DNA of 64,000 nucleotides from Synechococcus sp. (GCA_051439605.1 JBFRWN010000070.1:16168-80167), one strand, 5' to 3'; numbered from the stretch's first letter, positions 5,901-45,151 are shown. The notes: generated from the letters alone by a model not told the origin. Program-made: numbers and translations.

Positions 5901-7459
5901 ATGTGAACCAAAGTGACCTGATGCAGGGAAAAGGCAGAGAAGCCGCACATCAGCTTGAAATCGGGGCAATTATCGCTACTGCAGTCCGTACAGAGCAACA
6001 GTTCATTGGGGTAATCTCGGTACACCGCACCAATCCCCATCGCTGGGCCGATCGCGAGCTTTCGCTCCTGAAGCAAGTTGCCGATCAACTAGCCGTAGCT
6101 ATCAATCAGGCAACCCTATACGATCGCGTTCAAACCTTGAACGAACAGCTGGAACAGAAGGTCGAACAAAGAACGGCTCAGGTGAGTCAAGCGCTGAAGT
6201 ACGAAGCAACACTCAATCGGATTACCGATAAGGTGCGAGAGAGTCTGGATGAAGAACAGATCTTGCAAGTCGCTCTGCAGGAACTGACGTCTGTTTTAGA
6301 CTTGCTTTATTGCAATACTGCTGCTTACGATAACGAGGCAAAAGTCGCACAGTTAAACCACGAATATTCCTCCCTCGATGCCTCCTTTTCCCAGGCAGTT
6401 GGACAAACTGTTTTGATGGAGGATTTTCCAGATCGGTTTAAACAGATTTATAACCGCGAGCCCTTTCAATTTTGCGAACTAAAGCCATCTTTCAATCGTC
6501 CACATGCGAGCATACTATGCCTCCCGATCGCCGACAATCAAGAGGTTTTGGGAGATATTTGGGCGTTCCGTACATCAGATAGATCGTTTACCGACCAGGA
6601 AGTTCGCATCGCCCAACAGGTGGCAAATCAATGCGCGATCGCTATTCGCCAAGCTCGACTCTATAAAGCTGCCCAGGCCAGGGTGGAAGAACTCGATCGC
6701 CTACATCTGATGAAAGATGATTTCCTCAGCACGGTCTCTCATGAACTGCGCTCTCCTGTGGCAAACATCAAGCTTTCCCTCGACATTCTTCAGGTCGCGC
6801 TAGATAAGATGAAGCAGGCCAGTGACGCAAAAGAGCACGATCGAATGGAGAAAAAAGTTCAGAAATATCTTGAAGTGTTGAATATTGAATGCGATCGCGA
6901 AATTTCTTTGATTAAAGACTTATTGGATCTGCAAAGGCTAGAAGCAGGAACAGAGACGCTTGAGTGGGAATTCGTTAATCTCAAGAGTTGGTTACCTCAT
7001 ATTATTTTGCCATTTGTTGAACGAGCAAAACAGAACAATCAAACCTTAGCCTACGATTTTCCCTCAAATATGGATGGATTAGTCACCGATATGCCAAGCC
7101 TTCAGAGGATTCTGACGGAGCTGCTGACCAATGCTTGTAAGTACACACCTCCCAAAGAATCTATTATTGTGAAGGCATATAGTCACGACGAGCGGTTTAC
7201 GTTTCAAATCACCAACACTGGGGTGGAAATTCCAGAGCGTGAACTTCCCTTAGTCTTTGACAAGTTTTATCGCATTGTTGAAGTCGATCGCTGGAAACAG
7301 GGGGGAACAGGGCTAGGACTCGCCTTAATTAAGCGGCTGACCGAAGAAATTGGTGGAGCAATTAGAGCGTGTAGTAGTGACAACCAGACTACCTTCATAA
7401 TTGAACTACCAAATCGCATAGATATGTTGGTATCTCAGCCAGCTGTCTTAGCAGGTTAA
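2981..7459 (+). CDS. Membrane multi-sensor histidine kinase: TM-periplasmic-TM, 3 PAS, 3 GAF (first is a cyanobacteriochrome GAF), HisKA, HATPase
   Basis: PAS/PAC motifs (EYRIVKPNGKIRWIRD), GAF NLVVPI...LWGLLIAQHC, H-box FLSTVSHELRSP, ELLTNACKY and GTGLGL. Confidence 0.92.
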   Translation: MRNTSPFKSWAHQYQKWFNSLIGDRLALDQLRWLPFAIGGGVAVTGITVALQLRQLEQERLHSTIQIQVEQFADKLTNLWQNRLLTVQHIGSMSARQHNALSEAQYHHDSEILFGPFPDTIALAKLDREGNLQHVIAHSEGDRDSVESTIQSPDIAKLVRDREPQDAILTRHEEWMLAYSPIVREGTYSGALIAVFDYRSLLEKTFSLTSLESLAVVTITCNGKPFWSNGQTTTTDELPIEEKFGYAKHTFGITALPQQSTLLSWHYGSFIVGGGSLAFGAILAGMLALWQTSYRRYRRATDINQQLDIEIEAHKQARVELTKRKKQLRMVLDNSLASIFQKDSDLRYVLVNRQFANLCGLEIHQLLGKRDTDLFPAEIAEPLENNDRQVLNSKQAHCFEEELMFAGNQRTHLTSISPLTGETGEVYGICGVSIDVSERKLVENRLQAAYKQLDLQFDCAPIAIIEWDAQCRITRWSRQAEHLFGWTSEEQMGRHWGDSHLHLSEEAVQVNRILQRLLSGAEDTVVKTQSNITKSGTVLLCEWHHSVLRDDSGQVVSLLSMGLDITARHQATLALQASEKGLRQLTENIHEVFWISDPQSHKTLYVSPAYEEIWGRQREELLNNPDILIQSIHPDDRQAILDSYFLQKQAGQETEAEYRIVKPNGKIRWIRDRAFPVYGGSGKLLRVVGLAEDVTETKQAKIALQRKKRQQKLIAIIGQHIRRSLDVNTILQSTVEEVRHILKCDRAIIYEFDSDWNGTIAMESVDVGVTSLLGKTFEDTCLAQTSCLYAYANGQRIQAIADIFEAGLDDCYLKLLASCEVRANLVVPIVFERELWGLLIAQHCRAPRHWEDSEVDLLKQIANQAGIAIQHSQLLTQAQQQAQQQLLLNQLIRNIRDSLDRSTVLQQAADSLRIALNASRCCISLCNPEDDFFTVEYSSNALGILDIRGRSVPIAGNPHTQKVINSDAVVAVDDVNQSDLMQGKGREAAHQLEIGAIIATAVRTEQQFIGVISVHRTNPHRWADRELSLLKQVADQLAVAINQATLYDRVQTLNEQLEQKVEQRTAQVSQALKYEATLNRITDKVRESLDEEQILQVALQELTSVLDLLYCNTAAYDNEAKVAQLNHEYSSLDASFSQAVGQTVLMEDFPDRFKQIYNREPFQFCELKPSFNRPHASILCLPIADNQEVLGDIWAFRTSDRSFTDQEVRIAQQVANQCAIAIRQARLYKAAQARVEELDRLHLMKDDFLSTVSHELRSPVANIKLSLDILQVALDKMKQASDAKEHDRMEKKVQKYLEVLNIECDREISLIKDLLDLQRLEAGTETLEWEFVNLKSWLPHIILPFVERAKQNNQTLAYDFPSNMDGLVTDMPSLQRILTELLTNACKYTPPKESIIVKAYSHDERFTFQITNTGVEIPERELPLVFDKFYRIVEVDRWKQGGTGLGLALIKRLTEEIGGAIRACSSDNQTTFIIELPNRIDMLVSQPAVLAG

Positions 7460-7553
7460 TCCAGAGAAGCCAGCATGATTGAGAACTAGTCTGAATCCAT
7501 CAATATCCACTTGAATATCCCTATAGTCCAGATAATTATTCGAGTAGAAGAGA

Positions 7554-8288
7554 ATGACTACCTCCAGATTAGGACTTGATGGATGTCGTGCGGGGTGGAT
7601 TGCTTTTTCTGTTTCGCCACACCAACTGCACCATCATTTACTGGAAACGCGACAGCAGCTCTTAGCTCTGTTGAACGATGCCTCGTTAACCTTCATCGAT
7701 ATGCCGATTGGGCTTTCGGATAGTGAAGCAAGCCGCAGGTGCGATCGACTGTTACGTCAGGCTCTTGGGCCCAACTTTCGGTCCAGCGTTTTCAATCCGC
7801 CGGTCAGAGCAGCTGTATATTCCGATAGTTATTTCGAAGCCTGCGATCGCAACGCAGCAGTCACGGGCAAAAAAATCTCTAAACAGTCTTGGAACATTAC
7901 TGCAAAGATCCGTCTGCTGGATGGACTTCTGCAGCAGCATCCTCCACTAAGGGAGACGGTACTCGAAAGCCACCCAGAGTTCCTGTTCTTCCAGCTCAAT
8001 GGTGGCAGGTCTTTATTGAACAAGAAGAAGACACCGGCAGGCAAGGAGGAAAGGCTCGCGATACTTGAAAGATGCTGGCCAGGGGTGTCATCTGCCTTTG
8101 GACTAGCGCGATCGCAGCATCTCAAAAAGCAGGTGGCCGATGACGACATTGTGGATGCATTGGGACTAGCCATTGGTGCACATCTGGCCCATCAGGGGGG
8201 AGTGCTCAGCCTACCCTCACCCATTGATGTAGATTCTGCAGGTATTCCGATGGGGATTCATTACTGTAACCGAGTGACGGCCCAATAG
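7554..8288 (+). CDS. DUF429-family protein (predicted RNase H-fold nuclease)
   Basis: LGLDGCRAGW, FIDMPIGL, RRCDR, SSVF.PP, ESHPE and DDIVDA motifs. Confidence 0.85.
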   Translation: MTTSRLGLDGCRAGWIAFSVSPHQLHHHLLETRQQLLALLNDASLTFIDMPIGLSDSEASRRCDRLLRQALGPNFRSSVFNPPVRAAVYSDSYFEACDRNAAVTGKKISKQSWNITAKIRLLDGLLQQHPPLRETVLESHPEFLFFQLNGGRSLLNKKKTPAGKEERLAILERCWPGVSSAFGLARSQHLKKQVADDDIVDALGLAIGAHLAHQGGVLSLPSPIDVDSAGIPMGIHYCNRVTAQ

Positions 8289-8529
8289 ATGGGGATAGCC
8301 GAACTTGAAACTCGTATAGTCCAGATAATTATTTGAGATAACTCCCTACTTTCTTGCCATCCACTAGTGAATGCGCCTAGGCGAATGTATAACTCAGTGT
8401 TTTTTAGTTTCGACCCCCGATGCATGACTGTATTGCTTCCTCGGGCATCGCTTTACGTCGCATCACACTCTACTCACTCCATATGTACTGCCTACCCTTG
8501 GATATGTTCCGACCTCGGACTCTACCCAA

Positions 8530-8562
8530 ATAGTCCAGATAAGTGAGAGTTATCTGGACTAT
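8530..8562. other. Perfect inverted repeat, 13-bp arms with 7-bp asymmetric spacer (candidate recombinase core or protein-binding site)
   Basis: ATAGTCCAGATAA-GTGAGAG-TTATCTGGACTAT seen directly; the function is inferred only. Confidence 0.6.
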
Positions 8563-9221
8563 CAATATGGCCGCAGGCTGAAATGCTTGCTGTATATGGC
8601 TTTTTAGGAAACTCTTTCCGCTAAAAAATGACCGGATTGAGGTGCAAGCAGAGGCGATCGCTCCCATAGGGCTTTCTCTTGCACAAAGCTCAAGTCACTT
8701 GATGGTTCGCCTTTATACGTTTATCGTCAGTCCAACGACCTTGGGCGAGCTATTGCTTTCATCATCTTGTCCAGATCCTTTCGTTCAGTCTTCTCCCTAG
8801 TTGCTCGTACCCAGCAGTGGACTTAGGAAAACCGAATAATTATCTGGACTATCGGTAGCCACATCGTAAGAAATCTAAGTCCGCCGTCCCCCACGATTTT
8901 TTTCCTCAGTTGTATGGAAAGGCTTCGTTGAGCTAAATATCAGCCGATTAAATAGCCAAGCAACTGCTTGCCCCTTAAGCTCTTATGAAACAGCTTCGAT
9001 CCTCTGCATTGGCCGGAAAAATTATCTGGACTATCTATGTTAAATTGCACAGCTAGTACCAGCGGGAGCATTTGAGTTGAACTATGGGCCTCTCTAGCAA
9101 TTGACAAGCGCGATGGGTACTCAGCCCCTCCCCTTATTAGGAATAGAGCTTGTAGCCCTGACTGAGATGCAACAAGTATCAGTAGAAATTTGATGTTCGG
9201 ACTGGAATTCAAATGCAAATC

Positions 9222-9743
9222 TTAGACGGTTGCCGCTGTTTCTTCTGTGGTTAACTCCTGAGTGGAACTTGCACTGTTCTGAATAACCAACACCGAGCAA
9301 GAGGCATGATGGAGCACGTAATTACTGACGCTGCCCATCAACAATTCACCGATCGCCCCCAATCCTCGGCGTCCTATCACGATCGTGTCGGCCCCCCACT
9401 CTTCAGCAATTTCGCAAATGGTTTTCCCCGGCTCTCCAAACCGGTGACTGTACTCCACATCCACTTGGGCATCCGGAGCGCGTTCTGCATATTCCTGTAC
9501 GGCCTTAGATGTCCGATCCGCAAATGATTTCAGTAATTCCAATCCCAACCGATGCATTTCTGCAGTTTCCCGTAAAAATAGCGAGAGATCTTGCATATCT
9601 GTCCCCAACGCCATTCCTTCAAACAAAGACGTGACGTTCAATAGCAGCGTTTGTGCCCCCATTGCCTCTGCGAGCGCCACCCCCTGTTCAAATACCACTT
9701 CGCTGAATTCGGACTTATCTAGAGCTATCAAAATTCGTTTCAT
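9222..9743 (-). CDS. Universal stress protein (UspA family)
   Basis: MKRILIALD start at 9743 (the track ORF is over-extended to 9914); GEPGKTIC...IVIGRRG...LMGSVSNYVLHHASCSVLV. Confidence 0.92.
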   Translation of the reverse strand: MKRILIALDKSEFSEVVFEQGVALAEAMGAQTLLLNVTSLFEGMALGTDMQDLSLFLRETAEMHRLGLELLKSFADRTSKAVQEYAERAPDAQVDVEYSHRFGEPGKTICEIAEEWGADTIVIGRRGLGAIGELLMGSVSNYVLHHASCSVLVIQNSASSTQELTTEETAATV

Positions 9744-10041
9744 CTCCGCGCCCTCAGAATTCCACTGGCGTCCCCTAGTTTTAAGTCTAGAGATAGATTG
9801 TGGGGAAAGCGTGAGTCTGACAAGCCAGGGATGTCTTCGATTCCGGAAAACGAAAGAATCGTCGTCACAATAATTATCTGGACTATGGACTCCAGCAACT
9901 GCAAGAGCCCTCACTCCCTAAGGTTCTGCTAAACCGCAGGAAAGCTACAATCGCGGGCCCCTTTCCAGCGTGGCATTTCCCAACATTGAGGTATCGGTTG
10001 TTAAGCTGTTCGGGCAATTGAAAAGCTGCTCTAAGTGGATG

Positions 10042-12864
10042 TTAAGCCGGCGTCTTCCGATTGTTGCGCCAACGCCTCCACCCCAGCAAAGCCATCCCCA
10101 TTACCACTAATCCCAAAAGCATCCATTCTTCAGGCTCTGGCACCCCAGAAACCGTCAGCGGGTCAAATGGTTCTCCTAACTCCTCAATCCCCGATTCCAC
10201 CTCGCGGTCAAATCGATCCTCGGCATTCTCTGCCTCGTCCAAATCCTCTAGCTGCCGCTCGTTCACCAACACAATCATGGAGGAATAAGGGCTGACCACC
10301 TTGTAACTTGTGGCGATCGCGTGTAGCCGATCCAGCTGCTCTAATTCACTGCTGCCCCCTCGACTCAAGTCAGCAATCAGCTGACGAGCGGCGATCGCTG
10401 CAAAGCCGCTGCCTCCATCCGATACCTCATCCGACAGTGCCAAATCGCTGCCCACATCTGTACCGGCTCTCTCCCACAAATATCCATCTATCACGCCGAT
10501 TGCCGTAGGTTGCTGCGAGCGTACTGTCAAGGTGTCTATGATTTGCGCCATATCGGTAGACACCCCACCGTGGCTTTGCTGAATAGCATCGAGCATAACG
10601 TCATCGTAAGAAGCCGGTAGCTGCCCCCCCACGTGCATTAGCCAAAGGGGAACCGAAACCTCGCTATCTAGGGAGAGATCGGTGGCCAGTTCGTAACTGC
10701 CTGCATCGGTGACCAGCACGACAGCGTCGTAGGTTCTCCCCTCCTGCTGCTGAAGAAAAGCGTTCAGCATTTCTTGGGGCTGAATTGAGCCGTAGTTAAC
10801 GATCGATGCAGCATCAAATTGCTGTAAGTCATCAATTCTTTTCGCTTCAAATCCTTGTCTGCTGAGATAGAGATCGGCGTCATTCTTGCTTAGTTCGCGA
10901 TCGCTAAATCCGCGCTCTTTCAGCCAATTAAACAGCTCGATAACTTCAGCTTTATTGGCTTCCATACTGAACGAGCGATCGAGCAGGATTGCTAGATGCA
11001 ACTTTGGTTCGATTGCTTCATCCGGTTGCAGATCGCCCTGGAAGGGAGTAGCTTGCAGCTCGTAATCATCTAGCAACTTGACTCTGTGCTCTTTCGGCTG
11101 ATAATCCGCTGTGGCAGGTAATATCTGCTCCAACCAGCTGTCTTGGGAGGGGATTTTCTCACCATTGCGCAATCGTTCTGTTTTGCCGTTCCAATAGACA
11201 TTGCGATACTCGATTGCCTGCGGTAGCGGCCATCCCTGGGGCTGTTGTAGCACGCTATAGGCCATCCACAAATGCAGCTCTGACTGGCGATCGTCATTCA
11301 ATTGCTTGGAGGGAATGGGGAAGGCTCGCAGTCGGTATTGTCTTGGCCCCACCTGTTCTAACAGGGCAGGGTCAACCTGCCGCCTCACCTCGTTGTTATA
11401 CACCTGTTGAGCAGCCCCTCTCGGAGACACCCGGAACTGATAGCGATCTGCCCTCGAAGGACTATTTCCCAGCCACAATCCAGTCAGGGTGGCACTTTCT
11501 AGCAATGAAAACGTATAGAAAATTTCTTGGTCTTGAAAGGTTTGATTTTGGTAGGTTTCGTGAATCTCTATGTCTGCCCAATCCTGATGTTCGTTGATAG
11601 AGATTTCCTGTTGTTTGAGCCAAACTAATGTTTGGTCGATATTAATCAACCCTGCTTGGGCTTCTTGGCGATTAAAAGTAGAGTCCAAAGCAAATTGGAT
11701 TGCTCCCCGCTCCCCCTTTTGAATGGAGGTATCGAAAAACTCTGAATAGAGGGATTCTGCTTTGCGGACGTCGCTGCGGGAGCCATCGTACAAGAAAGGG
11801 GCCATCAATTGGTTGTAGAACCGCTGTAGCCCTAAACAGACCCCGTCAGGCAGTCGGAAGACCTGGCGGTACATGGCATAGATGTGGTTGTTATCTTCCC
11901 GGCTGCTGAGATAGCGATAGGGAGAAAGATAGGCATTGCGCAGTCCAACCTGAATGGTATCCGCTTCGGCCAAGAGCTCCTGTCTAGCTTGGTTGGTTTG
12001 TGGGGACGTGGCTAGTAGTTCAAAGGCTTTTGCGGAGGGCTGTTGCTGCAAGAGTAGGCAAGCGAGCGCTCCTATAGCGGTTGTGGCTGTCACTGCGGCG
12101 ATCGCAATTCCCTGTCCGTATTGCTTGGAAAACCATTGCAGCGATCGACGTCCATCCCGCACGTACAGCCAGCAAAGTGCCAGGGGCATGCCAAAGAACA
12201 AGGTTGCCGACATGCCAAACAGGATTAACGACAGAAGTATCCAGATGCCACTGCTCAGTAAATAGGTAAACCCCTCCGAGACCAGCTCTAGCAGGGGTTC
12301 GAACCAGCCAAACGAGAAAAATCCGATCGCCGTCACCCATACAGCGGGCAGTACATAAAAGGCAAGCACAACGGTTCCGTAGATCCCCACCCAGAACACC
12401 GCTGTCTGACCGCTTAAGTTCAACCAATCCTTTAGAGGAGAGTCTAAATGGATCTTTTTTTCACCCTTTTGAGACACCTTCCCCTGAATCAGATTAAGGA
12501 GATACACCACGATCGCCACCACAATCGTGCCAAGGGCAAAAGCAGCCCCTGCAGGAAGTTCGCGCACAAGGAACAGACGCAGAAGACACAGCAAAAAGAA
12601 CGGAGCTTCCACACCGTAGAACAAGCGTCCTAACCGATCGGGTTGGGTTCTGAATTTCGCAAACCCAATCCCCGTGCAGATCAAAGGGACAGCAACGATC
12701 CCTAAAAAGGACAGCAATAGGCTGTAGGGGATAGCTCCTGCGGCGATCACACGGGGAATAACGGCCCCTCCCGCTGGCAAAATGCCCGCCAAGACGATGA
12801 GGAGGAAAATACCGTTCCAACCCCAGAAAATGCAGTGGATTGCGATCGCTCTCAGTCTTTTCAT
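10042..12864 (-). CDS. PEP-CTERM integral membrane protein (TIGR02921-like; multi-TM, VIT-like and vWA-like domains), exosortase O target
   Basis: Several N-terminal TM helices, LLDRSFSM and VLVTDAGS vWA motifs, C-terminal VPEPEEW + TM + RRWR. Confidence 0.85.
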   Translation of the reverse strand: MKRLRAIAIHCIFWGWNGIFLLIVLAGILPAGGAVIPRVIAAGAIPYSLLLSFLGIVAVPLICTGIGFAKFRTQPDRLGRLFYGVEAPFFLLCLLRLFLVRELPAGAAFALGTIVVAIVVYLLNLIQGKVSQKGEKKIHLDSPLKDWLNLSGQTAVFWVGIYGTVVLAFYVLPAVWVTAIGFFSFGWFEPLLELVSEGFTYLLSSGIWILLSLILFGMSATLFFGMPLALCWLYVRDGRRSLQWFSKQYGQGIAIAAVTATTAIGALACLLLQQQPSAKAFELLATSPQTNQARQELLAEADTIQVGLRNAYLSPYRYLSSREDNNHIYAMYRQVFRLPDGVCLGLQRFYNQLMAPFLYDGSRSDVRKAESLYSEFFDTSIQKGERGAIQFALDSTFNRQEAQAGLINIDQTLVWLKQQEISINEHQDWADIEIHETYQNQTFQDQEIFYTFSLLESATLTGLWLGNSPSRADRYQFRVSPRGAAQQVYNNEVRRQVDPALLEQVGPRQYRLRAFPIPSKQLNDDRQSELHLWMAYSVLQQPQGWPLPQAIEYRNVYWNGKTERLRNGEKIPSQDSWLEQILPATADYQPKEHRVKLLDDYELQATPFQGDLQPDEAIEPKLHLAILLDRSFSMEANKAEVIELFNWLKERGFSDRELSKNDADLYLSRQGFEAKRIDDLQQFDAASIVNYGSIQPQEMLNAFLQQQEGRTYDAVVLVTDAGSYELATDLSLDSEVSVPLWLMHVGGQLPASYDDVMLDAIQQSHGGVSTDMAQIIDTLTVRSQQPTAIGVIDGYLWERAGTDVGSDLALSDEVSDGGSGFAAIAARQLIADLSRGGSSELEQLDRLHAIATSYKVVSPYSSMIVLVNERQLEDLDEAENAEDRFDREVESGIEELGEPFDPLTVSGVPEPEEWMLLGLVVMGMALLGWRRWRNNRKTPA

Positions 12865-12900
12865 CAGTCCCTTTCCCAGAAATTTTTGACTGTTGGCTAA

Positions 12901-14493
12901 TTAGATAAGCGAAGAGTTCGTATTGGCACTCGAGACCGCAAAGCTATGGGAAATTGCGTCCTGTAACGCAGTTGCCATTGACTCGATCTGTTCGTTACCA
13001 GGCAGCAATGGGCGATCGAACAAAATCGACACCATCACCCAGGGCGTATCGGGATGGGTGATGGACTGCCAAAACCGGGCTATATATTCATCAGTTGTCC
13101 CCTGTGGGGATTGAAACCAGTAGGTGGCGGACAGCTTACCGTGTTCCAGCGATAGCCACCTAGCATCCAGCCCTTTTGCCAGCTGTGTTTCCTGCATAGC
13201 ATCCACTTGAAAGCCGTTGCCCGCAAAGCACAATTCTGGAGGATGGTGAGACTTCCAATCTTGGGCCACAACCACCAGCATCGACCCGCTGACCCCGTCC
13301 CAATCAAACTGCCATTTTTCAGCAATGGGAATGGTGGGTTGGTTGAAAAAATGGGCTTCAACCTGACTTAACGGCAGCGGAGTTGCATTGAATTGCTGTG
13401 GCAGCTGTATCGCTGAGATCGCCCCTTGAGAGACGAGTGGAGCAATTCCATTGCTGGCGATCGCAAAAGCCGCCAGAATAGTTACGAGACCCACTTGCCA
13501 GCGTCGATTCAGTCTATCGATGTCTTTTGTGACATAGGCTGTCAGTTGCTCTGGGTTACCGCATGCTGGACGATCGCGGGCAGCAGTGTCAGCCTTTGGC
13601 ACCCACTGCAGTAACAGCCATCCCACCCCGCAAGAAAGACAAAAGCCAATTAACCCCAGCGGTAGGTGCAGCACCTCGGCAAAGGAACGAGCACCCAGTC
13701 CGTAGGCGATCGCCACTAAGAGAAACACCCGGACAGCATTGGCCCAGAACAGACAAAATAGGGTTCCACAGGCAGCTAACAACCAGCGCAGTCCCAATTG
13801 TCGTTGTTCTAGCAAGGTAACTAGCAAAACAAACACACCGCCCGTCCACAGGCTTTTGAGGCCGCTGCAGGGCAAATCTACATGGGCAATTCCGTTCTCC
13901 AACAGAATGATGTCGTTGGCTGAAATCGCTGCTACATGCCACAGGTGCATGGCCCGCTCGACCAAATGGGCCGTCATCACTCTGGCAGGGACCCCTAATC
14001 CCGTTTGGAACTGCGTACTGAAGGGCAGAATGCAGGTAACTAGGGCTGTCACGGGCCATCCCTGCTTCCAGGCTCTGGGGGTTAAGTGCAGCCCCAGTAA
14101 ACCGTAAGTACCGAGGGACAGCAGCATTACGTTCAGCTGGGGAATATCTACAAGAGGTTTGAGCAGCAGAGAACCGAACCCTCCCCCCACCGCCACCGCT
14201 AACGGCCACCAATGGCCATAGCACCTCATCCGAAAACTCCACGCAGAGGAAGAGCCCTTTGCCTTTGTTATCCTGCCTAGCAGCTTCCAAGCCACAATTG
14301 CGCCTACCCCCAAAGCAAGCCCTAGGTTTGTGTTGGAGGCTGCATCCAATGTAGAGAACAACCACCGTAAGGATCCCCAATGGGTGTATCCCCATAGCCC
14401 CCAGACGCATGCCGTCATGGCCACGGACAATATTGCCGGTGGCATTGGGCGATCGCCCAAAACTATAGTTGGGCCGGTGCTTGACTCCTGCAT
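12901..14493 (-). CDS. xrtO: Exosortase O with C-terminal EpsI-like domain
   Basis: Multi-TM protein; VDLPCSG (catalytic Cys), ANAVR (Arg), LHLPLG (His), HHPPELCF; directly upstream of a PEP-CTERM gene. Confidence 0.8.
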   Translation of the reverse strand: MQESSTGPTIVLGDRPMPPAILSVAMTACVWGLWGYTHWGSLRWLFSTLDAASNTNLGLALGVGAIVAWKLLGRITKAKGSSSAWSFRMRCYGHWWPLAVAVGGGFGSLLLKPLVDIPQLNVMLLSLGTYGLLGLHLTPRAWKQGWPVTALVTCILPFSTQFQTGLGVPARVMTAHLVERAMHLWHVAAISANDIILLENGIAHVDLPCSGLKSLWTGGVFVLLVTLLEQRQLGLRWLLAACGTLFCLFWANAVRVFLLVAIAYGLGARSFAEVLHLPLGLIGFCLSCGVGWLLLQWVPKADTAARDRPACGNPEQLTAYVTKDIDRLNRRWQVGLVTILAAFAIASNGIAPLVSQGAISAIQLPQQFNATPLPLSQVEAHFFNQPTIPIAEKWQFDWDGVSGSMLVVVAQDWKSHHPPELCFAGNGFQVDAMQETQLAKGLDARWLSLEHGKLSATYWFQSPQGTTDEYIARFWQSITHPDTPWVMVSILFDRPLLPGNEQIESMATALQDAISHSFAVSSANTNSSLI

Positions 14494-45118: not shown

Positions 45119-45151
45119 ATAAGCTCCACCAATTTTGGTGGGGCTTTATTT
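45119..45151. terminator. Probable bidirectional intrinsic terminator
   Basis: AAGCTCCACCAA-TT-TTGGTGGGGCTT between the convergent heme oxygenase and nagZ genes. Confidence 0.6.

Follow-up and report, generated by a model that had tools for sequence, protein, structure and literature searches.

A 64,000-nucleotide stretch of a Synechococcus sp. genome (GCA_051439605.1 JBFRWN010000070.1:16168-80167; hereafter the window, with positions counted from its first letter) contains seven identical copies of a 13-base word, ATAGTCCAGATAA, two of which face each other in a 33-base palindrome. Comparison of this locus with related genomes indicates that the palindrome is probably the dif-like crossover site of a lineage-specific, single Xer-type recombinase encoded elsewhere in the genome. 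The five single copies that flank it, here called half-sites, are predicted to provide additional monomer-binding sites for the same recombinase.

The cluster lies on contig C70 of the assembly to which the window belongs (G000; 4,897,348 bases in 143 contigs). An exact search found ATAGTCCAGATAA at 7523, 8316 and 8530 on the forward strand and, given by end coordinate, at 8562, 8852, 9034 and 9886 on the reverse strand, and all seven copies fall within 2.4 kb, the forward ones left of the centre and the reverse ones right of it. When up to 2 mismatches were allowed, one extra match appeared in the window, at 45146, and none of 100 shuffled windows reached this total of 8 (mean 0.95 matches). 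The initial annotation had described seven identical intergenic 13-mers in 2.4 kb, split by strand, with four copies extending to an 18-mer and a core gap of about 930 bp without a credible open reading frame (ORF). The exact search and an ORF map bear this description out: the ORFs exclude every copy, the 18-mer ATAGTCCAGATAATTATT is present at 7523, 8316, 8852 and 9886, and the gap measures 933 bases (8289-9221), with no ORF longer than 92 amino acids. Four small ORFs in this gap were scanned against Pfam with zero matches, and an Rfam search of 6500-11000 returned nothing up to E = 1. The word is not scattered through the genome; the whole assembly holds 8 exact copies, the seven of the cluster and one at C58:5470-5482. 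The 13-mer flanks no insertion sequence (IS) or miniature inverted-repeat transposable element (MITE). Metagenome contigs from three further runs reproduce the locus, which speaks against a misassembly. None of the 40 letter differences listed falls inside a 13-mer (48 further differences exist), and the loose contig ends observed at 8530/8562 and 8834/8853 belong to related strains with only the site in common.

The centre of the cluster, 8530-8562, is a perfect palindrome composed of an arm (ATAGTCCAGATAA, 8530-8542), an asymmetric 7-base spacer (GTGAGAG, 8543-8549) and the inverted arm (8550-8562). We compared it with 30 genomes of one early-branching cyanobacterial order and with 371 other cyanobacterial genomes of the class. 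The main search, using arms of 10 bases and a spacer of 7 with at most 3 mismatches, gave one strong match each in 21 of the 30 genomes of the order; second matches, where present, carried 3 mismatches. One palindrome per genome is a feature expected of dif, and it was found in G000 and the 20 other matching genomes. In the complete genomes G016 and G007 the spacer has 8 bases, G004 carries a variant at the start of a contig, and G019 has an arm at the end of each of two contigs, taken here as a single palindrome broken by assembly. The total is 25 of the 30 genomes, with one palindrome in each. Exact 9-base arms were detected in 19/30 genomes of the order versus 4/371 outside it, and those four had other spacer lengths.

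The initial annotation treated the seven sites as equals, a view that did not survive the comparison: across the 30 related genomes, the conserved single-copy unit is the palindrome, and single copies occur in some genera only. In other relatives with a cluster, a ATAGTCCAGATAA-type word again surrounds a 13+7+13 palindrome, and the neighbouring genes differ between genera; no neighbour gene common across families was found within 3-10 kb of the palindrome. Members of genus g4 have the palindrome but no half-sites; it occupies a syntenic intergenic position there, with the same genes on either side. A loose palindrome search in five g4 genomes gave noise only, and the 8-base-spacer form escaped that search. 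At the g4 loci L110, L112, L125 and L126, a Rubisco-activase-like gene (AAA and small-subunit-like domains) begins 70-150 bases downstream of the palindrome. This gene is broken by stops in G022, a genome that also lost the palindrome. The downstream gene was rejected as the source of the binding protein because its product is a Rubisco-activase-like AAA protein, not a DNA binder. A metagenome scan with 9-base arms found full 13-base arms in 5 of 80 loci examined (119 were reported), and the rest were unrelated hairpins. One such hairpin, AAAATCCAGATAAC-N6-GTTATCTGGATTTT, occurs in about twenty unrelated metagenome contigs (L190, L193, L194, L202, L208-L212 and others) and shares the 9-base arm core, not the full 13-mer.

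The composition of the palindrome is informative about what may recognize it. The spacer lacks symmetry and is conserved in part, as (T/C)TnnnAC on one strand and GTnnnA(A/G) on the other, and the inner arms read TAA-N7-TTA. Arm position 4 is G or C, and in 6 genomes both letters are mixed within one palindrome, which argues against a selected hairpin and for recognition by a protein. A hairpin RNA or terminator was discarded on the grounds that the arms mismatch at position 4 in these 6 genomes and that no U-run follows.

The candidate enzyme is encoded by a tyrosine recombinase gene at G000:C28:14492-15430 (312 amino acids; PF00589, E 1.8e-30). The general inference of the initial annotation, that the locus is bound by a sequence-specific protein encoded elsewhere, thereby stands, with this Xer-type recombinase on another contig as the putative protein. 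The catalytic motifs Arg, Lys, His-x-x-Arg, His and Tyr are readable in its sequence, and the nearest solved chains are 4a8e (XerC-like/XerA), 1a0p (XerD), 5hxy (XerA) and 5jjv (XerH). The best NCBIfam matches were XerC (121 bits), XerA (118) and XerD (112), all far below the equivalog cut-offs. A PF00589 scan of the order gave a match in 28/30 genomes and none in G010 and G022, both of which are 99% complete. The C28 recombinase has a single orthologue in the 28 genomes at 73-91% identity, whereas the DUF429 and Usp (universal stress protein) proteins encoded within the cluster are far less conserved, at 56-63% identity within the genus. G016 has exactly one PF00589 gene and one palindrome. 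In a search of 1.84 billion representative proteins, the recombinase's own cluster matched at 76% and 73% identity, after which identity fell to 32-35%, with no further match above about 35-43%; a word-based protein search returned 31 matches, all at least 69% identical and with source names from this lineage. On the evidence of these searches, the enzyme and the palindrome share the same narrow range.

Other tyrosine recombinases were noted as well. The nearest homologues outside the enzyme's own cluster (P0032-P0048) are mostly 620-790 amino acids long and match twice, and they resemble two tyrosine recombinase units fused in tandem. On the contig of the cluster itself, C70:5984-6931 encodes a tyrosine recombinase of a different family (PF00589, E 1.8e-20), which is not the conserved orthologue; the gene precedes the window by about 10 kb and is 17 kb away from the cluster. 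For FtsK, the search of G000 with FtsK_SpoIIIE (PF01580) gave only a 26.8-bit P-loop match over 36 positions, and a cyanobacterial control genome was unmatched as well.

The distribution of the two parts links them further. The recombinase (28/30 genomes) is present wherever the palindrome (25/30) is, and G010 and G022 have neither; in G022 the palindrome was cleanly deleted between unchanged flanks. In G013, the recombinase gene (C7:431-1348, L151) carries an in-frame TAG at about codon 29 and is otherwise intact, and the syntenic spot of the palindrome (C22:32465-32552, L161) retains the first arm only, followed by a G+C-rich, hairpin-forming insert and the contig end. These features look like a recombinase-palindrome system caught in decay. 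A functional pair would be expected to decay in this way, with both parts eroding by degrees within one lineage.

If the palindrome is a dif-like site, each of its inverted 13-base arms would be occupied by a recombinase molecule, and the two molecules would carry out strand exchange over the 7-base spacer, or the 8-base spacer of some relatives. This exchange at the core would resolve chromosome dimers in the manner of XerA, XerH, XerS and XerL acting at dif. A half-site, which consists of one arm and a T-rich spacer start with no partner, would hold a monomer and should not recombine alone. The weakest step of the proposed mechanism is that the half-sites might concentrate the enzyme or build a directional nucleoprotein structure round the core in a cell without FtsK. 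A stronger version, in which the half-sites do the job of FtsK and its orienting polar sequences (KOPS), of Tus/Ter or of XerD-type unloading sites in FtsK-less cyanobacteria with many chromosome copies, is conceivable and in our judgment rather unlikely. In such a self-contained dif system, monomers at the inward-pointing half-sites would form a directional barrier or wrapping structure, and this structure would either let the core recombine within one molecule only or stall replication forks or SMC complexes.

The half-sites of the window lie on both sides of the palindrome and among genes directed at it. The outer left half-site (18-mer, 7523-7540, forward) is followed by the start codon of a DUF429 gene 18 bases downstream, and has no second arm (4/13); the inner left one (18-mer, 8316-8333, forward) has no second arm (3/13). 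Between these two, the DUF429 gene (7554-8288, forward; PF04250, E 2.4e-51) is directed at the palindrome. On the right, all half-sites are on the reverse strand: the inner one at 8840-8852 (18-mer spanning 8835-8852; no second arm, 6/13), the middle one at 9022-9034, followed by TTTTT (no second arm, 3/13), and the outer one at 9874-9886 (18-mer spanning 9869-9886; no second arm, 6/13), which is 130 bases upstream of the start codon of a Usp gene. This gene (9222-9743, reverse; PF00582, E 6.6e-32) lies between two right half-sites and is likewise directed at the palindrome. Throughout the clusters, the half-sites are followed mostly by T and then by T or G, and no second arm was found after them (2-7/13, like background).

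Half-sites were found in the family of the window and in five genera of its sister family, with none in g4. They number up to five per side and extend across kilobases with genes between them. In 22 loci, 34 exact single copies are directed at the palindrome and 3 away from it; because the genomes are related, the binomial figure of 1e-7 for this polarity overstates it. Two metagenome contigs, which look like same-species strains, add 4 half-sites towards the palindrome and 0 against. The two sides are occupied about equally, 18 versus 16. Nearly all half-sites are exact 13-mers, and few copies have a single mismatch. Between G009 and G029, whose alignable neighbouring DNA is 78-85% identical, a double half-site in tandem is unchanged over 34 bases (100% identity). 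DUF429 orthologues lie near the cluster in G001 and G002 too, and in G001 the half-site ATACTCCAGATAA precedes the orthologue at a position matching that in G000, with the DUF429 proteins 63% identical. In G002, the Usp orthologue with its upstream site, and also the 40 bases next to the palindrome, are on the opposite side of the palindrome and in the opposite orientation compared with G000; this swap implies that the DNA was once inverted about the centre, an event that keeps the polarity. Since the half-sites point inward from both sides and remain exact amid diverging DNA, we take them to be functional accessory sites.

The position of some half-sites relative to genes could also be explained by transcription. 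Several lie just upstream of, and co-directed with, genes, as before DUF429 (18 bases before the ATG), before Usp and in the G006 array, and GATAAT inside the word resembles a -10 hexamer. The asymmetric 13-15-base word might accordingly be an operator, single at promoters and paired at the palindrome, with the link to the recombinase coincidental; phage P1 C1 repressor has both monovalent and bivalent operators. The g4 palindrome 70-150 bases upstream of the Rubisco-activase-like gene, a pseudogene in the palindrome-less G022, would fit such a regulator. However, each genome has one locus, whose neighbour genes change between genera, and it is unlikely that a factor would be retained for one target that keeps changing. 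Downstream of many half-sites there is no gene, or the gene they face is convergent, and operators usually vary between copies, whereas the half-sites are letter-perfect. A spacer of either 7 or 8 bases is poorly tolerated by fixed dimers, and no candidate factor is encoded near the locus. Operators are, in our estimation, quite improbable.

A different origin of the half-sites is suggested by the DNA between them. The genes there are miscellaneous (DUF429, Usp, pentapeptide, methyltransferase, hydrolases, GNAT, MZB and PIN) and differ between species, even within a genus. The half-sites might thus be scars, that is, hybrids left when circular elements with one good and one degenerate arm integrated at the dif-like palindrome, in the manner of integrative mobile elements exploiting Xer (IMEX). 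Repeated captures would then have stacked unrelated segments outward, each edged by an inward-pointing half-site. This model predicts the observed polarity as well as one arm and a spacer-like TT start with no recognizable second arm; the lack of arrays in g4 agrees with it, and plasmid-like contigs offer candidate donors in their sites that pair a perfect arm with a degenerate one. However, scars should decay, and the large majority of the half-sites are exact 13-mers amid diverged DNA, some of them retained at corresponding positions in different species. The heptamers that follow the half-sites (such as TTATTCG) are unlike the current G000 spacer, and the homology edges in the G009/G029 and G018/G025 pairs do not fall at half-sites. 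No gain or loss of a unit bounded by half-sites was seen in three congener pairs. The simple form of the model would also place TT-type scars on one side only, in contrast to the 18 and 16 observed. The conservation of the half-sites favours working accessory sites over scars, and the cassette-like content and the one-armed plasmid sites keep scars alive as an explanation; we consider both the hybrid origin and the outward stacking unlikely.

The arrangement of forward copies on the left and reverse copies on the right also resembles the ends of transposons. The copies could be nested 13-base terminal inverted repeats or transposase sites of abutted Tn7- or Mu-like ends, and the seven sites recall Tn7, which has 3+4 TnsB sites. 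A unit in G001, composed of a forward site, a 240-amino-acid ORF and a reverse site, resembles a small element; however, this ORF has no Pfam match. No array has a transposase gene in it or nearby, the locus is single in each genome and shows no spread, its position is syntenic within a genus, and the forward and reverse copy counts are often unequal. Mobile element ends are extremely improbable, and transposon or MITE ends were dismissed because of the single locus per genome and the arrays without a transposase. An integron was excluded by the absence of an integrase in the locus, by single arms without a partner and by arrays that run in both directions. A shufflon (Rci/sfx) was likewise rejected, as there is no adjacent recombinase and no split gene, and the copies on each side have one direction.

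Several observations weigh against a dif-like site served by the C28 recombinase. Location at the terminus is a defining property of dif, and in three genomes the palindrome is separated from dnaA or dnaN by 34% (G002), 41% (G016) and 29% (G007) of the circle and not by about 50%. The GC skew, by whose switch a terminus would be recognized, was flat, with no pattern, in 40 samples of 20 kb from G002 and in 20 samples from G016. The recombinase gene is unlinked to the site, being on C28 versus C70 in G000 and at 1,608,866 versus 2,947,838 in G002. Two genomes, G003 (85% complete) and G005 (92% complete), have an intact recombinase and no palindrome was seen in them; it may fall in an assembly gap. 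The correlated losses carry less weight than three cases would suggest, because G010, G022 and G013 are close kin with reduced genomes and represent one or two events, and a coincident loss of enzyme and palindrome in this clade is possible. Contigs of four metagenome DNA runs showed no joints at the sites, although contigs cannot show rare events. As for the half-sites, g4 manages with the palindrome alone, so they are dispensable for the core function, and they are spread over kilobases with genes between, in contrast to the compact accessory regions of cer, psi and res.

The chromosomal position bears equally on the locus types proposed in the initial annotation, among which a recombination hub is closest to our interpretation. 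The centromere and iteron-origin readings on its list lack support, with no par or rep genes near the locus, and an origin was ruled out since dnaA and dnaN are 1.7 Mb from the site in G002. A polar fork trap or terminus, in which the opposed sites would act as barriers through another protein or through the recombinase itself, would account for the two opposed polar groups (34:3) round a centre and for array genes that run mostly inward in G000 and G006. Fork traps of known systems enclose dif, and on the 80-kb contig the cumulative GC skew peaks at the site, although this peak is weak and noisy and the ORF strand bias uninformative. On the other hand, the array is only 2-5 kb long, many genomes have no array, the G002 and G016 chromosome samples are without a skew pattern, and the site is not opposite dnaA or dnaN. 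We rate a fork trap as very improbable.

Beyond its outermost sites, the cluster is flanked by a PAS/GAF histidine kinase gene, which ends at 7459, and by a VIT-domain gene, which ends at 10042. The region 10042-14493 beside the cluster contains this VIT-domain gene (940 amino acids) and then, on the minus strand, an exosortase gene (EpsH family, 530 amino acids); the two may form an exosortase-substrate pair.

Solo copies of the word outside the main cluster, on G000:C58, G021:C115 and G006:C583, have a degenerate second arm at 7-base spacing that matches 9, 9 and 10 of 13 positions, respectively; only 0.4% of background positions reach a 9/13 second arm. These solo sites strengthen the case for a dif-like core. 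The site at C58:5470-5502 (L182) reads ATAGTCCAGATAA-TGTTAAA-ACAGCTGGATTAT, and is dif-like with a second arm of 9/13; a ParA-type ATPase gene is about 1 kb away, followed by a small ORF and accompanied by a PIN toxin gene. Given its 12-kb length and lower G+C content (45%), C58 is probably a plasmid with a multimer-resolution site. Plasmid cer and psi sites have one perfect and one degenerate arm and borrow the host Xer. On G021:C115 (L034), two forward copies within 358-2500 share a 12-base upstream flank, each is beside a Uma2-family endonuclease gene, and they lead to a decayed palindrome, ATAGACCAGATGA-N7-GTATATGGACTAT; this looks like a second, degenerate locus.

The locus provides a concrete candidate site and a concrete candidate enzyme for one early-branching cyanobacterial order, some members of which are, by their source names, apparently cultured strains. 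A systematic survey predicted dif in almost all bacterial phyla and in 0/5 cyanobacteria, a failure that it discusses and leaves open (PMC3025954). A term search of the accessible text of a review of single-recombinase systems gave no mention of cyanobacteria (PMC5357621), and full-text literature searches, covering articles without their supplements, returned no later description of a cyanobacterial dif. In a published classification of tyrosine recombinases, a cyanobacterial 'Cyan' subgroup of simple enzymes falls in another class and is proposed as a possible substitute for Xer (10.1101/542381). If our interpretation is true, a further lineage-specific single-recombinase system would stand beside XerH, XerS, XerA and XerL. 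The arrays may reveal what confers direction on dimer resolution when FtsK is absent, or they may indicate that DNA is captured at dif. The 13+7+13 site and the compact 312-amino-acid recombinase might also become a practical pair for site-specific recombination.

Among known systems, the closest likeness is to XerA/dif, XerH/difH, XerS/difSL and XerL/dif, each of which combines one tyrosine recombinase with one single-copy, near-palindromic chromosomal site; in the present case this combination is read from sequence. XerL/dif, described as specific to Legionellales (PMC9765430), shows that a system restricted to one order can be recognized late, and the system proposed here would be lineage-specific as well. 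The inner arms, TAA-N-TTA, resemble archaeal dif sites, whose most conserved feature is given as TAA(N)6-8TTA in PMC11840125. FtsK is apparently absent, as with archaeal XerA, which acts without it (PMC5357621). In contrast to the usual dif, with 11-base arms and a 6-base spacer, the arms here have 13 bases and the spacer 7-8, and whereas the xerS and xerH genes are linked to their sites, the recombinase gene here is unlinked (both comparisons with PMC5357621). The enzyme also differs from XerC, XerD and XerA in its NCBIfam scores, which are far below the cut-offs.

The half-site arrays resemble other systems only in part, and we know of no dif that has exact copies of its own arm arrayed with polarity on its flanks. 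The FRT site of the yeast 2-micron plasmid, the substrate of Flp, has 13-base arms, a spacer and a third, direct arm adjacent on one side. It is similar in its arm length and in having an extra half-site that points at the core; however, it has one adjacent extra arm on a eukaryotic plasmid, whereas here there are up to five per side over kilobases. In the Bacillus subtilis terminus, XerD-binding sites, few in number and spread over a large region, reportedly unload SMC complexes (Karaboja et al. 2021). These are Xer-binding sites in the dif region besides dif, as the half-sites are proposed to be, with a role in chromosome architecture and not in recombination; to our knowledge, neither strict polarity nor letter-perfect copies have been reported for them. 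The cer, psi and IMEX sites combine one conserved and one degenerate arm, as do the solo sites on C58, C583 and C115. The accessory sequences of cer and psi bind ArgR, PepA and ArcA on one side, within about 200 bases. IMEX elements integrate at dif (PMC5357621). The fork traps Tus/Ter and RTP/Ter share with the array asymmetric sites in two opposed groups round a central zone with dif. Those traps extend over tens to hundreds of kilobases, use dedicated contrahelicases and have sites that are not copies of dif arms; the array described here, in contrast, spans 2-5 kb and consists of copies of the palindrome's own arm. Judged from sequence, the most likely classification is a dif/Xer single-recombinase system, which is of a known kind, with the polar half-site arrays as its new feature.

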